DNA from: Vicinamibacteria bacterium
Lineage (GTDB): Bacteria > Acidobacteriota > Vicinamibacteria > Vicinamibacterales > JAENWD01
Length of the DNA stretch: 64,000 nucleotides
Direction of reading: 5' to 3'
Assembly: GCA_963832135.1 (NCBI GenBank)
Contig: CAWHTD010000012.1
Location: 76,902 to 140,901, forward strand
The position numbers and the translations under genes are program-made. Below are positions 3,977-36,061 of this stretch, one piece after another; position 1 is the first letter of the stretch, and every line of letters begins with the position of its first letter. The notes under the pieces are model-generated. The model was not told the DNA's origin, searched no databases, and was given only the letters and a program-made list of their open reading frames with translations.

Positions 3977-6900
3977 ATGAGCAGTTCTGTTGCAGTTGAT
4001 GACATAACCGAGTCGCAGCCGGGCCGAAGCATAGAGTTGCTCGGTATTGAAAGGCTCGAAGAACATGCCAGGCGCCTCGCGGCGCTGTTCACCGTGGCAC
4101 GGCGGCCGCAGAATCGCGGGCGTACCCATCTGCGGCGTCTCAGCGGCAACATGCGCGCCCTGCGGACGACCTATCGCGCACTATCAGTCGATGCGAGCCG
4201 TGGCGAGCCGGCGTCGCCGGCAACGGAATGGCTACTCGATAACTTCCACGTCGCCACCGAGGCTGCGCGCGATATCGCCCGTGACTTGCCGCCGTCGTTC
4301 TTCAGGCGCCTACCAACCATCGTGGCGGATGAGTTCGAGGGCATGCCGCGCATTCATGCCTTAGCCCTTGAGCTGATTCGATCGAGCGCCGGCCACTTGG
4401 ACGCGCAACGTCTTTCGCGATTTATCGTGGCTTTTCAGTCGGTCAGTCCGCTGACGATTGGCGAGCTCTGGGCCTGGCCCAGCATGCTGAAGCTGGCTCT
4501 TCTCGAACACCTTCGTGGTCGAGGCGATGTCCTATCGGCCGCTCGAACCGAGCGCCAGCGCGCGGATCGCGTTGCCCGCGCCGTCGAATCCGCGCCTCAG
4601 GCGCCACCACGCGATTGGCCGGAACACGTTCATCCCGCCTTCGCAACGCGCTTACTTCAGCGCTGCCGGGAATATGGCGAGGCCGCATCGAGACTACGTC
4701 AGCAACTGTCCTCCGCGTTGGCGAGTGAAGGGCAGAGCATCGAAGACGCCATCCGGGAGGAGGGACAGCACCAGGCATCCGAGCACGCGTCGATTTCGAA
4801 TCTGATCGGGAGTCTCCGTCTGGTGTCGTCCTTCGACTGGAGTGAATTCTTCGAGAGCGTCAGTCTGGTCGAACAGATTCTTCACCGCGATCCCGCCGGT
4901 GTGTATGGCCAGATGGATTTTCGCAGCCGTGATCGCTATCGGCATGCTGTTGAAGAGTTGGCGGAGCCGACGGGTGAGGGACAGATTCGAGTCGCGCTGA
5001 AGGCTGTCGAGCGCGCGAGGCGTGTGGCGGAATCGACGGCCAAAGTGCGGGAGACGCACGTCGGTTACTACCTGATTGGCAACGGCCGCCGCCAGTTCGA
5101 GCGAAGCGTGGACTGGACTCCACTCCCTGCACAGCGCCTCAGGCGGTGGTTTTTTCGTTACGCGACGCCAGGCTATCTGGGCACGATTGGCGTCGGCACC
5201 GTGTTGCTCGTCCTGGTCGGTCTCCAGTATGCGTACGTGCATGGATGGCGGGGTGCGTCGCTCCTCGCGGTCGCGGCGTTAACGGTGGTTCCAGCCAGCG
5301 AGCTGGTCATTCAAATCATCCAGTACATCGTCAGTCGGCTGATCCCGCCCCGGCGGCTGCCGCGCCTCGAGCTCGACCTGGTGCCTGGCGATTGCCGCAC
5401 CATGGTCATCGTCCCCACGATTCTCGACAGTGCGACGCAGGCGCGCGAGCTGCTTGCGCACCTCGAGGTCCAGGCCCTTGGCAACGTGGACCCGCACATC
5501 CACTTCGCGTTGCTCGCCGATTTTCGAGATGCGGCCAGCGAGACATCGCCGCGCGACGCCGACATCCTGGCCGAGGCACGCGCCGGCATCAAGGCGTTGA
5601 ATGCGAAACACGCCGATGGCGGGAGCACCCGCTTTTTCCTCTTTCACCGTCAGCGCCAATGGAATGCGGGTGAGGCGGTGTGGATGGGGTGGGAGCGCAA
5701 GCGCGGGAAGATCGAGGAGTTCAACCGCCTGCTTCGCGGAGCGACCGATACCAGCTTTGTCGTGACCGAAGGCGACATGACCGTGCTGCAGCAGGTGCGC
5801 TACTGCATCACCCTCGACAGCGACACGCGCCTGCCCCGCGACGTGGCCCGGCAACTGATCGGCATCATCGCGCATCCACTTAACCGACCGATCTTCAACG
5901 CGAAGTTGGGTCGCGTCACCGAAGGGTACGGCATCCTCCAGCCACGGATCAGCGTCACGTTTGCGAGCGCAGCCGGATCGCTCTTCGCTCGACTGTATTC
6001 CGGCCATACGGGAGTCGACCCGTACACAACCGCGGTTTCCGACACCTACCAGGACCTCTTCGGCGAAGGCATTTTTACCGGCAAAGGCCTGTTCGACGTC
6101 GACTCGTTCAACGCGGCGCTGGCGGATTCAGTCCCCGAGAACGCCCTCCTGTCTCACGACCTGTTCGAAGGCCTCCACGTCAGGGCGGCGCTCGTCTCGG
6201 ATATCGAGCTCGTCGACGAATATCCGTCGAGTGTGCTCACGCATGCGCGCCGGCAATTTCGCTGGATTCGGGGTGATTGGCAGATTCTGTTTTGGCTCTT
6301 CCCCTTTGTGCCATCGCGGCGCGGATTGACGCGGAATACGCTGCCCCTCATCGCGCGCTGGAAGATCCTCGATAACCTGCGACGGAGCCTCCTCTTACCC
6401 GCGCTATTGGCGTTACTGGCAGCCGGCTGGACGGCGCTCCCGGGCGCTGACTGGGCATGGACGTCCGCGGTGATGGTCGTGCTGGCCTCGCAGCTGCTGC
6501 CGCTCGCCGCCAACCTCGTCACGGGACCAGGCCGCTCACAGTCAATACCGGTATTCCTGCGCAACCTGGCCCGTGACATCGCCGTCGCGATCATGCAGGT
6601 GGTTCTCAGCGTCACCTTTTTGGCGTTTCACGCGTTCGACGCATTGCACGCCATCAGCTTGACGTTGGTTCGGCTCATTGTGACCAGGCGGCGGCTGCTC
6701 CAATGGGAAACGGCGGCGACTACCGCCGCCAAAGCCGCAGGAATGGCCGGTCGCGGAGAGGTCTCCCGATTTTATGCGGCGATGATCGCCAGCCCCGTCA
6801 TTGCCGCTGGGCTTGCCGTCCTGTTCCTGTTCACGCGCACGGACGCGTGGGGCGCCGCGACACCTTTTCTGATTCTTTGGCTGTCCGCGCCGGTCATCGC

Positions 6901-28309: not shown

Positions 28310-29524
28310 TCAGGAGTTCGCGGCAACCTGCTCGACGATCTCCCGGAAGGTCGAGACGAACCGCTCGACCGAAAACAGCTGCGCGCGCGTCTTGAGCATC
28401 TCACGGAGAGTGTGCTGCTCGGCCGGGTCGCTCATGATTCTGGTGATCGCCGCGACAGCGCCGTCAATGGTCTCGTAGACGAGCCTGGGATCGCTCCCGA
28501 CGATCTCGACCTGCCCGCCCCCACTCGGCACGAACACGATGCAGCCGGCCGACGCCATCTCGGCCGGCGCGATGCCGAAGTGCTCCGCTGACATACCGTG
28601 GATCCCATAACGGAAGCTCGGGATCAGCTCGAGCAGCTCTGCTCGGGAAAGGTTTTCGTTGAGGCTGAGCCACCCACCTGCGGCACGCACGCGATCCCTC
28701 AGGTGCCGGTAATAGGTGGTCGGCCCTCGTGTACCCACCAGGCAAAGGGTGGCGTGCGGAACCGAACGCCGAACGCCCGCCACGATATCGATCACGCGAT
28801 CGAGCTCCTTCTCCGGGGCGAAGCGCCCAATGCAGATGAAGCCCTCACGTCGCTGCGACCACGGCACGTCTGGAAATCGAGTCGCCACGGGCGGATACAG
28901 TGTGCGACTGCGAATACCGTAGAGCCGCTGCATCACACGGCCGGTCCAGTCAGAGTTCGTCAGCGTGACGTTTCGCTTCATCCGGTCCACCGAGAAGCCG
29001 TCGAGCCGATCGGCCAGCCAGTAGTACAAAGGCAGCAGCAGCGGGATAGCGTGGTACCAGCGAAGGTCAGTGGCGGGTCGGGGTCTCAGATGCGTCGGAT
29101 AATGGATGTACTGAACGCCGGCGCGTCCGAGGTCAGCCTCATTGCTGGCGCTAACAACCACATCGTACCGCCCGGCAACGGTTACCGCGGCGCGCCACAA
29201 GAGCGCGTGTTTGACGAGATTGACGCGACCCGGCAGGACCTTCGCGGCCGCCTTCATCCAGGCGGGCAAAGGCTCGACGATGACATCCTCTCGCCGCAGC
29301 GAGGTGCCGTAGAACCGATTCAGATCCCGCAGGTCGAGCTTCGTCCACGAAAGAACAGCCAGATCGTGCCGTCCGCGGATCGCGTCCAGCATCCACGCAG
29401 CCACGCCATTGCCGCCGCCTGGCGGCTGAAACGACGGCTGGATCACGAGCACGCGGCGCCGAGTGCTCGGAGCGGCCCCACCTGATGAACTGTGATGAAT
29501 AGCTGATAGCCTACACGAGTGCAC
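28310..29524 (-). CDS. GT4 glycosyltransferase, ALG11-like
   Basis: QPSFQPPGGGNGVAAWML resembles the ALG11 N-terminal GGGGE region. LTNSDWT resembles the ALG11 'NSSWT' motif, and EHFGIAPAEMASAGCIVFV is an EX7E motif. The start is uncertain (GTG 29524 or GTG 29452). Confidence 0.65.
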   Translation of the reverse strand: MHSCRLSAIHHSSSGGAAPSTRRRVLVIQPSFQPPGGGNGVAAWMLDAIRGRHDLAVLSWTKLDLRDLNRFYGTSLRREDVIVEPLPAWMKAAAKVLPGRVNLVKHALLWRAAVTVAGRYDVVVSASNEADLGRAGVQYIHYPTHLRPRPATDLRWYHAIPLLLPLYYWLADRLDGFSVDRMKRNVTLTNSDWTGRVMQRLYGIRSRTLYPPVATRFPDVPWSQRREGFICIGRFAPEKELDRVIDIVAGVRRSVPHATLCLVGTRGPTTYYRHLRDRVRAAGGWLSLNENLSRAELLELIPSFRYGIHGMSAEHFGIAPAEMASAGCIVFVPSGGGQVEIVGSDPRLVYETIDGAVAAITRIMSDPAEQHTLREMLKTRAQLFSVERFVSTFREIVEQVAANS

Positions 29525-30343
29525 GACTCGCGTCAGGGACTCGAGTTCGCCAACGCGCCGATGCTGCGGTTACTCAACCTCGGCCGCCACGTCGTTCCGG
29601 CGGCATGGCGCGCTCGCCTTCGGAACGTGCTTTTTCCGATTCGGGGCCTGACCTTCACACGACCATCCGGCGTCCGCCTTCGGATTGCGAACGACACCGA
29701 TTGGACGGTCTACACAGAAGTGTTCCGGAAAGGCGAGTACGATACGGCCATCAGTCGTGCGGTCACATCGGCGCGCGCCGGCCGGCTCTGCATCGTCGAT
29801 CTGGGAGCAAACGTCGGATTCTTCACGCTGCGTGTGATCGATACGATCCGAACCCTCGAGAGTCGATCGCTCGAAGTCGAAATCATCGCCGTCGAGGGGA
29901 GCCCTAGACGGGTCGAGGCATTCCGATCGCGCGTGATCGACGAGAACGGACTGAGGGATCAGGTTCGCCTGATCGGCGGGCTCGTTGGCAATCGTTCCGG
30001 GTCCGCGGCGCTCTATGAAGGCCGGACCCACGGCGACAGCAGTCTGTTCAAGCGCGCATCGTCGTCAGCCGTCGTCGAGGAGCTCGCGTTCGTCGACCTG
30101 TCGCCGCTCGTCGCATCCGAGCCGGCCATTCATCTGCTCAAGTGCGATATCGAGGGCGCCGAGCTGCAGTTCATCCGGACGTATCGCGACCTGCTGCTGA
30201 AGACAGAGGTTGCGGTGTTCGAGCTTCACGACGAGTTGTGCGACACGGCGGCCTGCCGTCGGCTCCTTCGGGACTATGGCTTCGGTCACGAGACCGTAGT
30301 CCGCCGCATGGGACCGTACGAAATCTACTGCGTCTGGCGCTGA
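29519..30343 (+). CDS. FkbM-family SAM-dependent methyltransferase
   Basis: It has VDLGANVGFFTL (SAM-binding loop) and HLLKCDIEGAELQF, as in FkbM-type methyltransferases. The alternative start is the ATG at 29561. Confidence 0.7.
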   Translation: MHDSRQGLEFANAPMLRLLNLGRHVVPAAWRARLRNVLFPIRGLTFTRPSGVRLRIANDTDWTVYTEVFRKGEYDTAISRAVTSARAGRLCIVDLGANVGFFTLRVIDTIRTLESRSLEVEIIAVEGSPRRVEAFRSRVIDENGLRDQVRLIGGLVGNRSGSAALYEGRTHGDSSLFKRASSSAVVEELAFVDLSPLVASEPAIHLLKCDIEGAELQFIRTYRDLLLKTEVAVFELHDELCDTAACRRLLRDYGFGHETVVRRMGPYEIYCVWR

Positions 30344-32625
30344 CCCTCCGGCCTAAGGGACCGCTCGTAAATCTGCACGAGCGCGGGGCCGAATCGGCTT
30401 CCGCTTGCCGGCAGCTGCCCGAGTGATCGAAATACCTGGCGGTATTCAGGCAGTGCTTCCAGCGGGACGCAGCTGGTTAACGGATCGGGGCTCGCGATTC
30501 GCCAATGTCCGGCCGGCCGGCTGGCGATGAACCGGGTCGCCTCCTCATAACTTGCAAAAGCCCTCTCGCCTGCAAGTCGCTTCACGCGGCGCCCGCCTCG
30601 TTCGTGATCGGTCCAGGAGACCGCTGTCACCGATGATGGCGTCATGGCGCGTCCGCCAAACGCATACAAGCGCACGGCCATGGTCCGGTAATACTTTGGA
30701 AAACAGTACAGGCGCGCACGCGACGCCATGCCGTCATCGGGTAATTCGACTTGCTGACAATAGTCCGATGGCGTCCTTCCGGCTGCCAGCGCGATTGCCG
30801 CGAAGAATCCGTCCTGGTCGTTGCGGCGGCCAACGAGCCGCGCCTGCAGCCGGGCATCGACGATGATGTAGCGCGAGCCGAGCACGTCGAGAACCGTTGA
30901 GGCCTCTGTCGGGCTCTCCGCGAGCAGGAACGACGCAACCTTTTTCGCCTGAGTCTGCCTCGGGTTCGTGTTGGGAACCCTGCGAGCGACACGGATGATG
31001 AAGTAGCCGTAATCCCACCACGCCAGAACGCCGTAAGCGCTGGCAGGCCGATTGGCGCCGGGCCCGATGTCGAAATCGGTTCGATAGTAGGCGTCTCGGT
31101 CGTTGAAGGGCTCCGGAGTGTTCGCATTCAGCCACTGCAGCGCGTCGGACCAATCGTCCGACAAGCCGCTTTCCTTGTGCCGTTCGCTCTGGATACGTCC
31201 GGCCAGCGGCATGGTGACGAGCAGGGCAAGGACCAGACCAAGTGCCCACGGAGCAACGGCGCTACCGCGGCGTCGCGCCGCGGTGGTCGATATCGTCGGA
31301 TCCAAGGCGTCTTGTGATGGACGTCCGTAGAGCTCGACACGCCGGATCAACGCGTCGCACGCGAACCCGGCGAGCAGCGCCACATTTACTCCGAGGTAGT
31401 ACGTGAAACGCACCTGCGCAAACGTGGCGGCGATGAAGACACCTGTCCAGACCGCCAGCAGCGCGCCTCGCGCCGACGTGACTCGTGGCCGTGCCAGAAA
31501 CCAGGCGCCGCCAACGACCGCCAGGAACAGGCACGGGCCGAATTCGTTCCAGAGCGGCAGCGGATATCGCGCGTCGGACTGCAGGAGCGGCAAGGCTTCA
31601 CTCACATAGGCCACGCGCCCCCAGGGCAACAGCCGTCGCATCTCGAGGCCAAATCCGCTCCACCCACCGCGGGCGGTGTAGGCAAGCGAGAGAACCATTG
31701 TCGCGCCGGCCGCCATCCCTGCCAGATAGACCGCGCGATTGTGCCTGTAGGAGGCCGTCGCGTTGCCCCACGCCTGAACGGCGCACAGCACCAGCAAGCC
31801 GAGCACCAGTGACGCGACGTGGTACACGAAGTAAGGCCTCGCGCCAACCCATGGAACAACCACGCCCGCCGCCACGCCGAGTGCGGGCGTGACGAGGAGC
31901 GGCAGGTTCTCGACCGGTCGGCCGCGGAGCCGTTGAAAGATGAGGCTCGTGCCGGCCGCCGCCACCACGACGAGCACGAAGAGGCTGCCGCCGCTCCAGG
32001 TCAGAAGGTAGCAGCCAAGCGTCACGCCGCCGATGCCAGACAGCCACAGCCTCCTGCCGAACGGCCGCGACGGGTCCAGCGCCAGCACGATCCACATCAG
32101 TGCCGTTGTGCTCAAGAGCGTCTCTGCGCAGTGGTGATCGGTGAACCCGAGCTGCGATCGAATCAGCGTCTGACTGGGAACCACCGCGACGAGGAACGCC
32201 GCCCACCTCCCGGCCCGGCGAGAGCAGAGCTCGCGGCCGAGCACATAGACAGGAGCGCACAGCAGCGCGCCCATGACGGCGGGGACATACGCCCCGACTA
32301 CATCAACGAGGCGAGACGATGGCGAGCCAAGGCCGAGGAGCAGCGCAACGCCGGCGATCACCCAGTCGAAGAAGGGACCGGCATCGACTGGTTCCCCTCC
32401 GGGATGCACGAGATACGGATCGAACCAGAGCCGCTGCGGGAAGTGACGGAGCGTCGCATCCACCAGACGCATGTGATACCACGCGTCGTTCTCGACAAAC
32501 CTGATAGTGTCGTGTCCGAACACGGCGTCGTAGGTGATGCCAATCCTCACGGCCAGAGCGACACCGAACAACGCGAGCAACCACGCGGCCGTTTGGAGAG
32601 GGACGCTGAACCCGGGGCGCCTCAT
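30325..32625 (-). CDS. Oligosaccharyltransferase catalytic subunit, STT3/AglB/PglB family
   Basis: It has the WWDYG motif (nt 31006-31020), an N-terminal loop acidic motif (ENDAWYHMR), a GFTDHH..E motif (D-x-H type as in archaeal AglB) and about 13 TM helices before a soluble C-terminal domain (SRYIIVD...). The ATG at 32625 overlaps the upstream stop (ATGA). Confidence 0.85.
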   Translation of the reverse strand: MRRPGFSVPLQTAAWLLALFGVALAVRIGITYDAVFGHDTIRFVENDAWYHMRLVDATLRHFPQRLWFDPYLVHPGGEPVDAGPFFDWVIAGVALLLGLGSPSSRLVDVVGAYVPAVMGALLCAPVYVLGRELCSRRAGRWAAFLVAVVPSQTLIRSQLGFTDHHCAETLLSTTALMWIVLALDPSRPFGRRLWLSGIGGVTLGCYLLTWSGGSLFVLVVVAAAGTSLIFQRLRGRPVENLPLLVTPALGVAAGVVVPWVGARPYFVYHVASLVLGLLVLCAVQAWGNATASYRHNRAVYLAGMAAGATMVLSLAYTARGGWSGFGLEMRRLLPWGRVAYVSEALPLLQSDARYPLPLWNEFGPCLFLAVVGGAWFLARPRVTSARGALLAVWTGVFIAATFAQVRFTYYLGVNVALLAGFACDALIRRVELYGRPSQDALDPTISTTAARRRGSAVAPWALGLVLALLVTMPLAGRIQSERHKESGLSDDWSDALQWLNANTPEPFNDRDAYYRTDFDIGPGANRPASAYGVLAWWDYGYFIIRVARRVPNTNPRQTQAKKVASFLLAESPTEASTVLDVLGSRYIIVDARLQARLVGRRNDQDGFFAAIALAAGRTPSDYCQQVELPDDGMASRARLYCFPKYYRTMAVRLYAFGGRAMTPSSVTAVSWTDHERGGRRVKRLAGERAFASYEEATRFIASRPAGHWRIASPDPLTSCVPLEALPEYRQVFRSLGQLPASGSRFGPALVQIYERSLRPEGQRQTQ
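31006..31020 (-). other. WWDYG catalytic signature codons of the oligosaccharyltransferase
   Basis: The reverse complement of 31006-31020 is TGG TGG GAT TAC GGC, which encodes W-W-D-Y-G. Confidence 0.9.
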
Positions 32626-33623
32626 GGCACCTCCATCGTCAGCAACGCGATGGCCGAGCACAGCACCATCAAGGCATAGAGAGCGAGCACCGCCGCGCGG
32701 TGCGAGAAGCCGAGCCGGAGCAGACGGTGATGAATATGCGCGCCATCTGCCGAGAAGATTCGCTCGACGGCTCCGGCGAGGCTCGCCAGCCCACGCTGCG
32801 GTGCGGGGTCACGTACCAACAGGCGGCGCGCAATTGCGACGACGGTGTCGGCAAGCGGCAGCGCGAAAATCAGGAGCGGCATCCCGACTGCCAGCGTCGT
32901 CGCGCCTTTCTGCTGTCCGGTGATGGCAGTGGCCGCCAGCAGGAAGCCGGCGAGGAGACTGCCCGAATCACCGAGAAAGATTCTGGCCGGGTGAAAGTTG
33001 TACGCGAGAAATCCGAGCACGGCACCGACAAGCGACACCAGCAGCATGGCACTCGGCTGCTGATCGCGGGCGATCAACACCGTGGCACAGGTCGTGGCCG
33101 CGATCGCAACCAGGCCGCCAGCGAGCCCATCGAGGCCGTCCATCAGGTTGAAAGCGTTGGTGACGACGAGGACCCACAGCATGGCGGCCGGGATTGCAAG
33201 CCATCCGAGGTCGTGCGTCGTGCCAAAAATCGTGACGCGCGTGATCGTCAGGCCGGCCGCGATGACGATGGCCGCGGCCGCACTTTCGACGAACAGCTTC
33301 AGCCGCGGCCCGACGGGATGCAGGTCGTCCCAGGCGCCGATCGCGAAGACGAGGGTGGCGCCGGCGATGATCGGCAACAGGCTCCGGAGATTGGGTTTCG
33401 GATCCGTGTCAGCGTAAGTCTCGATGATCACGGCGACGACGAGCGAGATGGCAAGGCCGAACGCGATCGCCACGCCGCCCAGCCTCGGAATGGGGGTCGT
33501 ATGCACTTTGCGGGCGCCAGGAGGGTCGAGGAGACCCAGACGATGGCAGGTGCGAACAATCGGAGGCGTAATCGCCAGCGAACTCACCAGCGCGGTCACG
33601 AACAGCGTTAGATAGACGACCAT
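32622..33623 (-). CDS. Polyprenyl-phosphate HexNAc-1-phosphate transferase (MraY/WecA family; ALG7-equivalent initiating enzyme)
   Basis: It has RKVHTTPIPRLGGVAI, NAFNLMDGLDGLAGG (the family DG.DGLA motif) and about 10-11 TM helices. The ATG at 33623 overlaps the upstream gene by 16 nt. Confidence 0.85.
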   Translation of the reverse strand: MVVYLTLFVTALVSSLAITPPIVRTCHRLGLLDPPGARKVHTTPIPRLGGVAIAFGLAISLVVAVIIETYADTDPKPNLRSLLPIIAGATLVFAIGAWDDLHPVGPRLKLFVESAAAAIVIAAGLTITRVTIFGTTHDLGWLAIPAAMLWVLVVTNAFNLMDGLDGLAGGLVAIAATTCATVLIARDQQPSAMLLVSLVGAVLGFLAYNFHPARIFLGDSGSLLAGFLLAATAITGQQKGATTLAVGMPLLIFALPLADTVVAIARRLLVRDPAPQRGLASLAGAVERIFSADGAHIHHRLLRLGFSHRAAVLALYALMVLCSAIALLTMEVP

Positions 33624-34714
33624 CGCTCCTGCATCACTCGCTCGCAGTCCCGGACGATCTGCGCCGCGGCCTCGGGGGTGGCGAATGCGCGCGCGGCGGA
33701 AGACATGGCAGTCCACTTCAAGGGCTGTCGCAGCACGTCGACGATGCGGGTCGCGATCGCGTCGGCATCCCAATCGCGCTCGCGGACCCACAACGCGGCC
33801 CCCCGAGACGCGAACGCCGCGGCATTCTCTGCCTGATGATCGCCTGCCGCGTCGGCCAGGGGGACCAGCAGCGCGGGCAGACCGGCGAGCGCCAGTTCGG
33901 ACAGCGTGCCTGCTCCGGCACGCGCGACAATCATATCGGCCCAGTCATATTGTTCGGACAGGTCGTCGAGGAAGGGAAGCACCTGCGCCGTGACGCCAAG
34001 TCGCAGGTACTGCTGTTCCAGAGCGCCCGGATCGAGCGAGGTCACCTGATGCCGTACTTCGGCGGGAATACCCACGGCCAGGAGCCGGGCGACGAGCGAC
34101 GGAACCGTCGCGGCCAGAAACGCGTCACCACGCGATCCCCCCGTGATGAACAGTCGTACGGCGCGGTCGGACGCAGGCGGCGTTCGCTCGCGCATCAGCC
34201 GTGCGCGTGACGCGAGGAGTGGCAGGCCTGTCTTCAGCGTCCGTCCGGCCGGAAACCGCCTCGCGGTTTCGTCGAACATGACGTAGGCGCGCTCGGCGAT
34301 TCGACTGAGCAACCCATTCGCCAGTCCGGGACTGGCGTTTGGCTCCACGATCGCGGTCGGCAGTCCAAGGCTGCGCGCCGCCAGCACGACGCCACCTGAC
34401 GCCGAACCCCCCGTGCCGATGACGAGCCTGATGCCGCGCTGCCGCAGCACGCGCCGCGCCAGCGTGAATGTGGGGATCACACGCATTGCGCCCGCCAGCC
34501 GTCCGATCGGACCTACGCGCACCAGCTGTGTCGACGGGACGAAGAACAGCGACTGGCCGGCGTCGGGAAGCAGGCGGCGCGCCCAGTCCGATTCGCCCGC
34601 CAGAAAGGTCACCTCGACACCCTCACAGGCACGGCGGTACGCGTCGGCGATGGCCATCGCGGGAAGCACGTGACCGGCCGTGTCGCCGACGACCATCGCA
34701 ATCCGCCGTATCAT
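33608..34714 (-). CDS. MurG-fold GT28 glycosyltransferase (ALG13/ALG14-equivalent second HexNAc transferase candidate)
   Basis: The N-terminal G-loop (VVGDTAGHVLPAMAIA) is the MurG GGTGGH-type. The C-terminal half has ARAGAGTLSELALAGLPALLVPL...DHQAENA, as in MurG. Confidence 0.8.
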   Translation of the reverse strand: MIRRIAMVVGDTAGHVLPAMAIADAYRRACEGVEVTFLAGESDWARRLLPDAGQSLFFVPSTQLVRVGPIGRLAGAMRVIPTFTLARRVLRQRGIRLVIGTGGSASGGVVLAARSLGLPTAIVEPNASPGLANGLLSRIAERAYVMFDETARRFPAGRTLKTGLPLLASRARLMRERTPPASDRAVRLFITGGSRGDAFLAATVPSLVARLLAVGIPAEVRHQVTSLDPGALEQQYLRLGVTAQVLPFLDDLSEQYDWADMIVARAGAGTLSELALAGLPALLVPLADAAGDHQAENAAAFASRGAALWVRERDWDADAIATRIVDVLRQPLKWTAMSSAARAFATPEAAAQIVRDCERVMQERWSSI

Positions 34715-34813
34715 GATTGGCGCGCCAGCCTACCATGCATGCCTGATTCTCCTGATCGCGCGACGCATGACCCGGCACTGCAGGCATGAATCGCGACGGA
34801 GCCCGTTAGCCGC
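34715..34813. promoter_or_regulatory. Divergent intergenic region between the MurG-like operon and the ALG1-like gene
   Basis: A 99-bp gap separates two divergent starts. It contains an 8-bp inverted repeat, CATGCCTG (34738-34745) and CAGGCATG (34781-34788). I could not assign promoter boxes. Confidence 0.3.
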
Positions 34814-36061
34814 GTGAGAGCCGTCGTCGTCGTGCTCGGTGACCTCGGACGCAGCCCCCGCATGCTGTTCCACGCCCGCTCGCTGGCAGCAGAAGGCCTC
34901 GAGGTCGACCTGATTGGCACGGCGGCGTCCGACTTGCCGGCATTCATTGCCGGCGACCGGCGCATTGTCGTTCACACGATCGCAGACCACGCGCCCCACG
35001 CTGGTGTGTCTTCAGCGAGGCTCCGGTATCTCCTGAGGACGGTGTTGCGAGGGGCGCGACTCCTGATGGCGCTCGCGAGCCTGCTCTGTTGGCGCCTGAG
35101 CCGTCCCGACGTGATCCTCGTTCAGAACCCGCCCGGCGCGCCCACGATGGCGGTGGCCTGGCTGGCTGCGAGGTTGCGGTCGGCTCGGCTCGTTGTGGAC
35201 TGGCACAACCTGACCAGTGCGATGCTCGCCGTGCGGCACGGTCCAGGCCATCCGCTCGTGAAAGTGATTGCGCAGTACGAGGCGCTCTTCGGCAGGGCGG
35301 CGGATGTGAACCTGTTCGTGTCGTCGCACATGCAGGAGATGCTTGGCCGCCGATTCCGGGTGCGGGGGACAGTGTTCCGCGATCGACCGGCTGACACGTT
35401 TGCTCCGCTTGCGGCCGACGAGCGCGACCGCGCTCGCACCCGACTGTTTGCCATGTTCGCCCGGCCGACGATGCGTGAAATCGCGCTGCTCGTCAGTCCC
35501 ACGAGTTGGACGGCCGATGAACACCTCGATCTGTTCCTCGAGGCGTTGACGCAATATGACGCGAGAACGCGAGCCGACCACGGCCCGAACCGGTTGCCTT
35601 TTCTCGCCGTGCTGATTACCGGGCAGGGACCGCTGAAACGTGCCTTCGAGGAGCGAGCTCGGGACAACCCGCTCGAGTACGTACACATCCAGACCGGCTG
35701 GCTCGAGCCGGACGATTACGCCCGAGCGATCGCGGCCGCCGATCTGGGGATCTGCTGCCACGTGTCCGCGTCAGGAGTCGACCTCCCGATGAAAATCGTC
35801 GACATGTTCGGGGCGGGTGTTCCCGTGTGTGCCTACGACTACGGACCGTGTCTCCAGGAACTCGTAACCCCCGGCGTCAACGGTGTGCTCTTCACGACCG
35901 CTGAGAACTGCTGCGACCGTCTCGAGAACCTGTTACGTGGGCTGCCGGCCTCGAATCCGGTTCTCGAACGACTGCGGAAAGGCGCTGCCGAATCGGCGCC
36001 CAGGACGTGGGGCGAAGGCTGGATCGCCGAGGCTCGCTCGGCGCTAATCCCGAGCCGCTGA
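34814..36061 (+). CDS. ALG1-like beta-1,4-mannosyltransferase (GT33-like)
   Basis: The N-terminus VVVLGDLGRSPRMLFHARSLAAEGLEVDLIG closely mirrors the ALG1 signature (VLGD-G-SPRM-YHA-SLA). The C-terminal part (LPMKIVDMFGAGVPVCA) is also ALG1-like. It starts with GTG. Confidence 0.8.
   Translation: MRAVVVVLGDLGRSPRMLFHARSLAAEGLEVDLIGTAASDLPAFIAGDRRIVVHTIADHAPHAGVSSARLRYLLRTVLRGARLLMALASLLCWRLSRPDVILVQNPPGAPTMAVAWLAARLRSARLVVDWHNLTSAMLAVRHGPGHPLVKVIAQYEALFGRAADVNLFVSSHMQEMLGRRFRVRGTVFRDRPADTFAPLAADERDRARTRLFAMFARPTMREIALLVSPTSWTADEHLDLFLEALTQYDARTRADHGPNRLPFLAVLITGQGPLKRAFEERARDNPLEYVHIQTGWLEPDDYARAIAAADLGICCHVSASGVDLPMKIVDMFGAGVPVCAYDYGPCLQELVTPGVNGVLFTTAENCCDRLENLLRGLPASNPVLERLRKGAAESAPRTWGEGWIAEARSALIPSR

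Follow-up and report, generated by a model that had tools for sequence, protein, structure and literature searches.

Overlapping start and stop codons join a MurG-like, a WecA-like and an archaeal-type oligosaccharyltransferase gene in a probable operon of a Vicinamibacteria bacterium

A stretch of 64,000 nucleotides (nt) from a soil-dwelling Vicinamibacteria bacterium (GCA_963832135.1, contig CAWHTD010000012.1, positions 76,902-140,901; the whole stretch is called the window hereafter) carries three consecutive minus-strand genes coding for a MurG-like glycosyltransferase, a WecA-like sugar-phosphate transferase and an archaeal-type oligosaccharyltransferase (OST). Our comparison with related loci indicates that these genes probably constitute one operon, in which the spacing of the junctions is typical of termination-reinitiation coupling. 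It is sound to regard them as one unit of transcription and function whose translation is probably coupled, because the junctions are conserved and the genes are present or absent together. The genes and their junctions are as follows.

33608 to 34714, minus strand: MurG-like GT28 glycosyltransferase gene, 368 amino acids (aa), the first gene; ATG start, TAA stop at 33610-33608.
32622 to 33623, minus strand: WecA/GPT-like polyprenyl-phosphate N-acetylhexosamine (HexNAc)-1-phosphate transferase gene, 333 aa, the middle gene; ATG at 33623-33621, TGA at 32624-32622.
30325 to 32625, minus strand: archaeal-type STT3/AglB OST gene, 766 aa, the last gene; ATG at 32625-32623.
33608 to 33623, minus strand: junction 1 between the MurG-like and WecA-like genes; 16-nt overlap, ATGGTCGTCTATCTAA.
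32622 to 32625, minus strand: junction 2 between the WecA-like and OST genes; ATGA shared by stop and start, spacing -4.

According to the list of open reading frames (ORFs) and the sequence itself, no intergenic space is left between any of the three genes. At junction 1, the WecA-like ATG is held within the conserved Arg-Trp codons (CGATGG) at the C-terminus of the MurG-like protein. An initial annotation of the window had placed the MurG-like stop (33608-33610) 16 nt within the WecA-like ORF beginning with ATG 33623, and had described the ATGA at 32622-32625 as common to the WecA-like stop and the OST start; both statements are correct to the base. The same annotation had proposed to check whether the overlaps are conserved in homologous loci, and the outcome of this check is positive. 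The comparison covered six other Vicinamibacteria genome loci and 11 metagenome loci carrying the same genes. The start-stop overlap at junction 1 is present in 17 of 17 loci (window included), while junction 2 is formed by an NTGA in all eight loci in which the WecA-like gene stands directly before the OST gene. The overlaps persist among loci whose proteins are only 45-57% identical. Junction 1 was found in the following forms.

4 nt, CGCTGGTGA (GTGA): L009, L060, L064, L066, L067, L069 and L070 (7 loci).
7 nt, ATGGTGA or ATGGTAG: L008, L010, L011, L055, L056 and L058 (6 loci).
16 nt, as in the window: window, L006, L007 and L057 (4 loci).

A maximum likelihood tree of the WecA-like proteins shows the GTGA state in all outer clades and the ATG-bearing forms in one starred clade of 11 rows, with the 16-nt form restricted to its subclade of eight rows. 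From this distribution over the clades, the longest overlap is reconstructed as derived. On this tree the 4-nt GTGA form is the ancestral one and the 7-nt and 16-nt forms are derived from it, the direction of change being 4 to 7 to 16 nt. The first step would have been the gain of an ATG one codon upstream within the conserved Arg-Trp codons (CGC TGG to CGA TGG), the second the loss of the TGA by a change in codon 2 of the WecA-like gene (GTG to GTC, GGC or GCC), and in the third the MurG-like frame would run on for three codons, turning the C-terminal RW-stop into RWSSI-stop. The change would have occurred either once with a subsequent reversal or twice independently. Hence, the series represents a small clean case of a long out-of-phase overlap arising from a canonical GTGA junction, and the route of start gain and stop loss can be followed in it. 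Fusion of the MurG-like to the WecA-like protein by a -1 frameshift (the WecA-like frame is the -1 frame) was considered as well and rejected, as no slippery heptamer is found around GCAGGAGCGATGG; a fused MurG-like/WecA-like homologue was not found among the 17 loci.

Junction 2 occurs in two forms, and Shine-Dalgarno (SD)-like motifs stand in front of both internal starts of the window.

Junction 2, ATGA: window, L006, L007, L055 and L056 (5 loci).
Junction 2, GTGA: L009, L010 and L011 (3 loci).
32628 to 32634, minus strand: SD-like GGAGGTG within the last WecA-like codons (Met-Glu-Val); its GGAGG core lies 4 nt before the OST ATG.
33626 to 33630, minus strand: AGGAG, 2 nt before the WecA-like ATG; too near for a typical SD motif and not conserved.

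In the DNA alignment of junction 2, the last three bases of NTGA never vary and the first is either A or G; the OST N-terminal codons that follow are poorly conserved and diverge freely. L006, L008 and L009 retain the GGAGGTG motif. It is altered to GGACGTG in L007, L011, L055 and L056 and to CAGACG in L010, i.e. it is lost in five of the eight loci with the OST gene directly after the WecA-like gene. Because GGAGGTG varies while NTGA stays, the SD motif does not appear to be required for the conserved -4 junction, and the idea of such a requirement was rejected. At the position of the AGGAG in front of the WecA-like ATG, relatives have CGACAGCG (L006), CCGAACG (L007) or GATTCGCG (L011).

The OST start overlaps the preceding gene in 11 of 11 loci, even when this gene codes for a different transferase. 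In L008, an orthologue of the ALG2-like gene of the window (52% identical) has its place between the WecA-like and OST genes; its own start lies in a GTGA, and its 3' end reaches 11 or 20 nt into the OST gene. On the metagenome contigs L064 and L066 the OST gene follows an ALG1-like gene (ATGCGTGA, spacing -8, i.e. an 8-nt overlap), and both genes lie on the strand opposite to the MurG-like and WecA-like genes, which represents an alternative cluster layout. Loci of the outer clade have an orthologue (48% identical) of the ALG11-like transferase encoded at 28310-29452 of the window behind the WecA-like gene; the spacing amounts to -4 in six loci and to -1 in another, and three loci have gaps of +6, +7 and +14 nt. 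Judged from these gene orders, the tight operon style is conserved, and the specific link from WecA-like to OST is conserved only in the clade of the window. Within the window itself, the ALG1-, ALG2- and ALG11-like genes and an ABC exporter are arranged in separate units on alternating strands. It had been claimed in the initial annotation that the overlaps hard-wire the co-expression of the enzymes initiating and extending the lipid-linked glycan with the enzyme transferring it to protein. A probable coupled operon is in agreement with the core of this claim, but "hard-wired" is an overstatement, because the partner of the OST gene differs in L008, L064 and L066 and the rest of the pathway is placed in separate units. 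The OST loci of Dehalococcoidia/Chloroflexi (L012-L049) had no adjoining MurG-like or WecA-like matches and provided no junction data.

The G019 locus lacks the MurG-like gene. In L135 (G019:C13, ~4204-4205) and in L063 (3139-3140), where the MurG-like gene is absent, an ALG1-like gene (minus strand) and a WecA-like gene (plus strand) stand back to back; their first aligned residues are adjacent or overlapping, so that there is no divergent intergenic space for a promoter.

The assumption of one unit is further supported by the distribution of the genes. Among 61 relatives, the OST gene and close orthologues of the WecA-like and MurG-like genes occur in the same four of 14 genus genomes, while none of the three is found in the ten remaining genomes of the genus or in the five other genomes of the same family. 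This patchy distribution suggests gain or loss of the whole three-gene block. The view, expressed in the initial annotation, that the genes form one functional unit rather than a chance neighbourhood is thus backed by synteny and co-occurrence, but the overlap alone is weak evidence for it, the -4 spacing being the commonest junction both in the genome of the window and in prokaryotes generally (PMC10666635, PMC12548453). A candidate promoter was recognized in front of the first gene.

34727 to 34735, minus strand: extended -10-like element TGGTAGGCT, 12 nt upstream of the MurG-like ATG; candidate operon promoter.
34715 to 34813: divergent intergenic region of 99 bp between the MurG-like gene and an ALG1-like gene (34814 to 36061, plus strand).

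The element TGGTAGGCT is identical in six of seven aligned loci and differs by one base in L008 (TGCTAGGCT). Its TG, its TAGGCT hexamer and the spacing between them are invariant in all seven, and the rest of the divergent region is poorly conserved. Genome-wide, TGnTAnnnT and -10-like hexamers are strongly enriched 0-40 nt upstream of called starts; 18-34% of the occurrences of TGnTAnnnT, TATAAT, TATACT and TAGAAT are found at most 40 nt upstream of a called start, compared to a roughly estimated expectation of ~1.6%. This enrichment suggests that short-leader or leaderless mRNAs are common in this organism.

Based on these observations, the following mechanism can be proposed. Transcription would begin at the conserved -10-like element just before the MurG-like gene and give an mRNA with little or no leader. 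A ribosome ending the MurG-like gene would halt 13-16 nt past the WecA-like AUG, and one ending the WecA-like gene would halt on the UGA, two bases of which also belong to the OST AUG. In both cases the terminating ribosome could restart locally, i.e. the genes would be linked by termination-reinitiation coupling. The synthesis of the WecA-like protein and the OST would then depend on, and scale with, the translation of the preceding gene, and the glycan-starting enzyme, the second-sugar enzyme and the transferase would be made together. At the 16-nt junction the AUG would be covered by the ribosome as it terminates, and to restart there it would have to step back a short distance; Adhin and van Duin (1990) reportedly observed that ribosomes can reinitiate at starts lying closely upstream. 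Coupling at the 16-nt junction may be weaker than at the ancestral GTGA. An alternative type of coupling, in which a masked start is opened by RNA unfolding through the upstream ribosome, was dropped, since the folds at the junctions and in the leader are at the level of shuffled sequences. Hence, reinitiation appears likelier than unmasking of the starts, because no stable structure is seen around either junction.

Experiments on other prokaryotes make such coupling plausible. Strict coupling was found for 13 of 14 overlapping pairs tested in E. coli and Haloferax volcanii, and the contribution of the SD motif was not the same for all genes (PMC6728339). For coupling, genes have to overlap or be separated by very few nucleotides, and it fell away when the stop was moved by ~20 nt (PMC10666635). 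With its spacing of -4, the textbook value for such a restart, the WecA-like/OST pair has the geometry of the pairs tested and one of the spacings of coupled pairs (-4, -1 or -8), and the MurG-like/WecA-like pair, at -16 in the window, has -4 (GTGA) in seven related loci and -7 in six. Several points weigh against coupling, however. The 101 nt around the junctions form RNA folds whose stability does not exceed that of shuffled sequences (z = -0.77 and +1.33), and the same holds for the leader. The 16-nt overlap belongs to the "phase 2" class of long overlaps (-7, -10, -13, -16), which is rare and lies outside the spacings tested (PMC10666635). In the window, the OST gene has its own strong GGAGGTG, hence independent initiation would be possible. 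Finally, overlaps are ordinary in this genome, as judged from approximate counts by a crude caller (self-written, codon-usage based, run over the whole genome with and without an SD term). Among ~4000 same-strand neighbour pairs 18% overlap, by 4 nt in 402-427 pairs (~10%), by 1 nt in 61-68, by 8 nt in 31-34 and by 16 nt in 7-9, and in 106 runs at least two overlapping junctions follow one another. Given its frequency, the -4 overlap might be retained for no other reason than that any indel would harm one of the two proteins.

It is possible, although we rather doubt it, that the three genes are co-transcribed and each of them is translated independently, with overlaps that result from neutral compaction or drift of stops and starts and have no regulatory role. 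The frequency of overlaps and of overlapping runs in the genome would fit this explanation, as would the variation of junction 1 between 4, 7 and 16 nt, which is more suggestive of drift than of a tuned spacing, the gaps of +6, +7 and +14 nt between the WecA-like gene and its follower in three outer-clade loci, and the strong GGAGGTG before the OST start of the window. It is difficult to reconcile, however, with the fact that the overlap was never lost at junction 1, at junction 2 or before the OST gene in any of the loci counted above. Moreover, the SD motif was lost in five of eight WecA-like/OST loci, and coupling is the rule in tested pairs of such geometry (PMC6728339). SD motifs are not frequent in this genome overall: one is found before 24% of leading genes and before 38% of -4 genes, compared to a background of 10%. 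Overlaps involve ~15% of gene pairs in most groups (PMC6728339), and the commonest spacings after -4 are -1 and -8 (PMC10666635). Collectively, the overlap pattern is not beyond chance in the single genome, but it is beyond chance as a conserved character, and a coupled operon remains the explanation that we prefer.

A more far-reaching, tentative idea is that the invariably overlapping MurG-like/WecA-like pair corresponds, in bacteria, to the eukaryotic initiation complex of Alg13/14 and Alg7. Junction 1 would then serve the matched or co-translational assembly of the two proteins, and the OST, whose gene is in every case the overlapped distal one after some enzyme of the lipid-linked glycan, would be dosed to the output of the pathway. 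If true, the junctions would belong functionally to a eukaryote-like module for N-glycosylation in bacteria instead of being mere packing. Among genes for subunits of complexes, an enrichment of short overlaps is known (PMC10666635), and PMC8993221, citing Lu et al. 2012, describes MurG-MraY and Alg13/14-Alg7 as interacting partners. In view of this enrichment and these interactions, a MurG-like/WecA-like complex would be a reasonable idea by analogy, although we consider the full scheme doubtful.

It is unlikely that internal promoters in the coding sequences of the MurG-like and WecA-like genes express the OST or the WecA-like gene separately, in which case co-expression would not be obligatory. 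A TATGAT hexamer is present within the MurG-like gene (33935-33930), but no match to the sigma-70 consensus was found in a scan of 29800-35300, which has to be read with the poorly known promoter rules of this phylum in mind. On the operon strand, TGnTAnnnT occurs upstream of the three starts only once, as TGGTAGGCT, and no extended -10-like element was found upstream of either internal start, i.e. the sole conserved one precedes the first gene. Terminator-like matches were as frequent as in shuffled sequences (3 found, 3.1 expected) and were treated as chance; one of them lies inside the WecA-like gene (33250-33233), in codons for RVTIFG that vary among orthologues. Taken together, the gene packing, the scans for internal signals and the conserved -10-like element favour a single transcript.

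All these considerations depend on the correct assignment of the start codons. The starts at 33623 and 32625 are not an artefact of choosing the longest ORFs, since the longest ORFs open further upstream of both, at GTG 33791 (WecA-like) and GTG 32661 (OST); these upstream starts were rejected by comparison with orthologous loci, as was the downstream WecA-like start GTG 33599. Our caller independently chose 33623 and 32625, with the SD term or without it, and alignments of homologues put both starts at the same positions as in the window. Seven WecA-like orthologues could be aligned end to end without gaps, from M1/V2 through to the final ...TM(E/D/Q)(V/T)P. The OST ORF of L009 has no start before the GTG of GTGA. 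Hence, the WecA-like and OST starts are both well supported by the comparison, and the use of downstream starts, which the initial annotation had named as a finding that would abolish the overlaps, is not borne out by the orthologues. A true WecA-like start at, for example, codon 9 (GTG 33599-33597, 8 nt past the MurG-like stop), which would leave no overlaps and might appeal because the AGGAG before ATG 33623 is too near for an SD role, is highly improbable, since this codon is GTC in L011 and GCC in L008 and thus no start codon there, the N-terminus MV(V/I)Y... is kept from residue 1 or 2 in all orthologues, the overlapping ATG/GTG is the first start of the ORF in L008, L011 and L069, and a downstream start would cut the conserved first transmembrane segment.

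For the first gene, no start precedes ATG 34714 within the ORF in the window, L006 and L011, and the MurG-like protein aligns from residue 1 in six loci. The caller favours the second ATG at 34696 (Met7) over 34714, giving two candidate positions; depending on the choice, the leader after the -10-like element would comprise 12 or 30 nt.

Regarding the encoded proteins, the MurG-like protein contains both GT28 halves in a profile search (PF03033, 71.4 bits; PF04101, 103.8 bits) and, with its N-terminus MVVGDTAGH, the G-x-x-G-H loop of the GT28 fold family. Its nearest solved structures are MurG 3s2u and 1f0k. Against TIGR01133, the equivalog model of lipid II synthase, it scored 209.8 bits, under the cut-off of 250.25, and a second MurG, 36% identical to it, is encoded near an MraY homologue on contig C9 of the same genome. 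Because of this low score and the separate MurG, the gene is classified as a dedicated GT28 paralogue of the housekeeping murG and not as a murG equivalog. The WecA-like protein matches PF00953 (Glycos_transf_4; 6e-41, 140.5 bits) and has MraY and DPAGT1 as solved relatives, while it reached 109 bits against TIGR02380, whose cut-off for the name WecA is 326. By its profile match it is a member of the PF00953 superfamily, with a putative sugar specificity only. The OST has the STT3 membrane domain and the AglB core (PF02516, 78.2 bits; PF22627, 76.8 bits), scored 479.4 bits against TIGR04154, the archaeal-type STT3 family (cut-off 450), and carries the WWDYG motif (as WWDYGYF), which places it among the STT3/AglB/PglB oligosaccharyltransferases. 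Its nearest solved structure is Archaeoglobus AglB (3waj/5gmy; 3waj, E = 8e-53), and it is predicted to transfer probably a lipid-linked glycan to proteins. The specificities of all three enzymes are inferred from such family relationships.

The overlaps are a routine feature of operons, offer little evidence of shared function of their own and teach nothing new about translation. It is by the gene order and the shared presence or absence, together with the overlaps, that the MurG-like, WecA-like and AglB-type OST genes can be recognized as a single unit of expression. This strengthens the case for a working protein-glycosylation pathway in the acidobacterial cluster instead of a chance neighbourhood, and the wider significance lies in the surrounding ALG-like N-glycosylation cluster. 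To express the pathway in a different host, it would be advisable to transfer all three genes together, leaving the junctions between them unaltered.

Two further observations concern the borders of the block. The 3' end of the OST gene overlaps the 3' end of a convergent FkbM-type methyltransferase gene (29519..30343) by 19 nt (30325-30343); therefore, each transcript must end within the other gene. At the other side, an ORF of 84 aa (34711-34965, minus strand) ends with ATGA on the MurG-like start codon and runs antisense to the 5' end of the ALG1-like gene; it was not picked by the codon-usage caller and is probably spurious.

The classic bacterial N-glycosylation cluster is the pgl locus of Campylobacter jejuni, which includes pglB and glycan assembly genes. 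As in that locus, a single-subunit OST is found in a tight cluster with enzymes for the lipid-linked glycan and an ABC flippase. The OST of the window, however, is of the archaeal AglB type (TIGR04154), and its initiator is a polytopic protein of the WecA/GPT type and not of the PglC type. Moreover, the next function is represented by a GT28 MurG-like enzyme, with ALG1-, ALG2- and ALG11-like transferases beside it. The junctions resemble the coupled -4 NTGA pairs of E. coli and Haloferax volcanii (PMC6728339, PMC10666635; review PMC12548453) in their co-direction, the shared ATGA, an SD-like motif of variable conservation in the upstream 3' end, and the retention of the junction among relatives; they differ in that coupling is deduced here from the genes alone and that the first junction is of the 16-nt phase-2 type.

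The pair of MurG-like and WecA-like enzymes is similar to MraY-MurG (lipid I/II) and to Alg7-Alg13/14 in that the same two folds would act successively on a polyprenyl-diphosphate sugar. In contrast to MraY-MurG, which as housekeeping enzymes of this genome are encoded on contig C9 by genes that do not directly adjoin, the pair in the window is a patchily distributed paralogous copy with putative substrates, with the MurG-like gene in the leading position and its end overlapping the WecA-like gene. Finally, the combination of a GPT-type initiator, a GT-B N-acetylglucosamine (GlcNAc) transferase and AglB is shared with aglH, agl24 and aglB of Sulfolobus acidocaldarius. These archaeal genes are scattered over the genome (PMC8993221), whereas their counterparts in the window are placed in one overlapping, predicted operon, and the GT-B enzyme of the window appears to be a true GT28 relative of MurG and not an enzyme of the Agl24 type (GT115).

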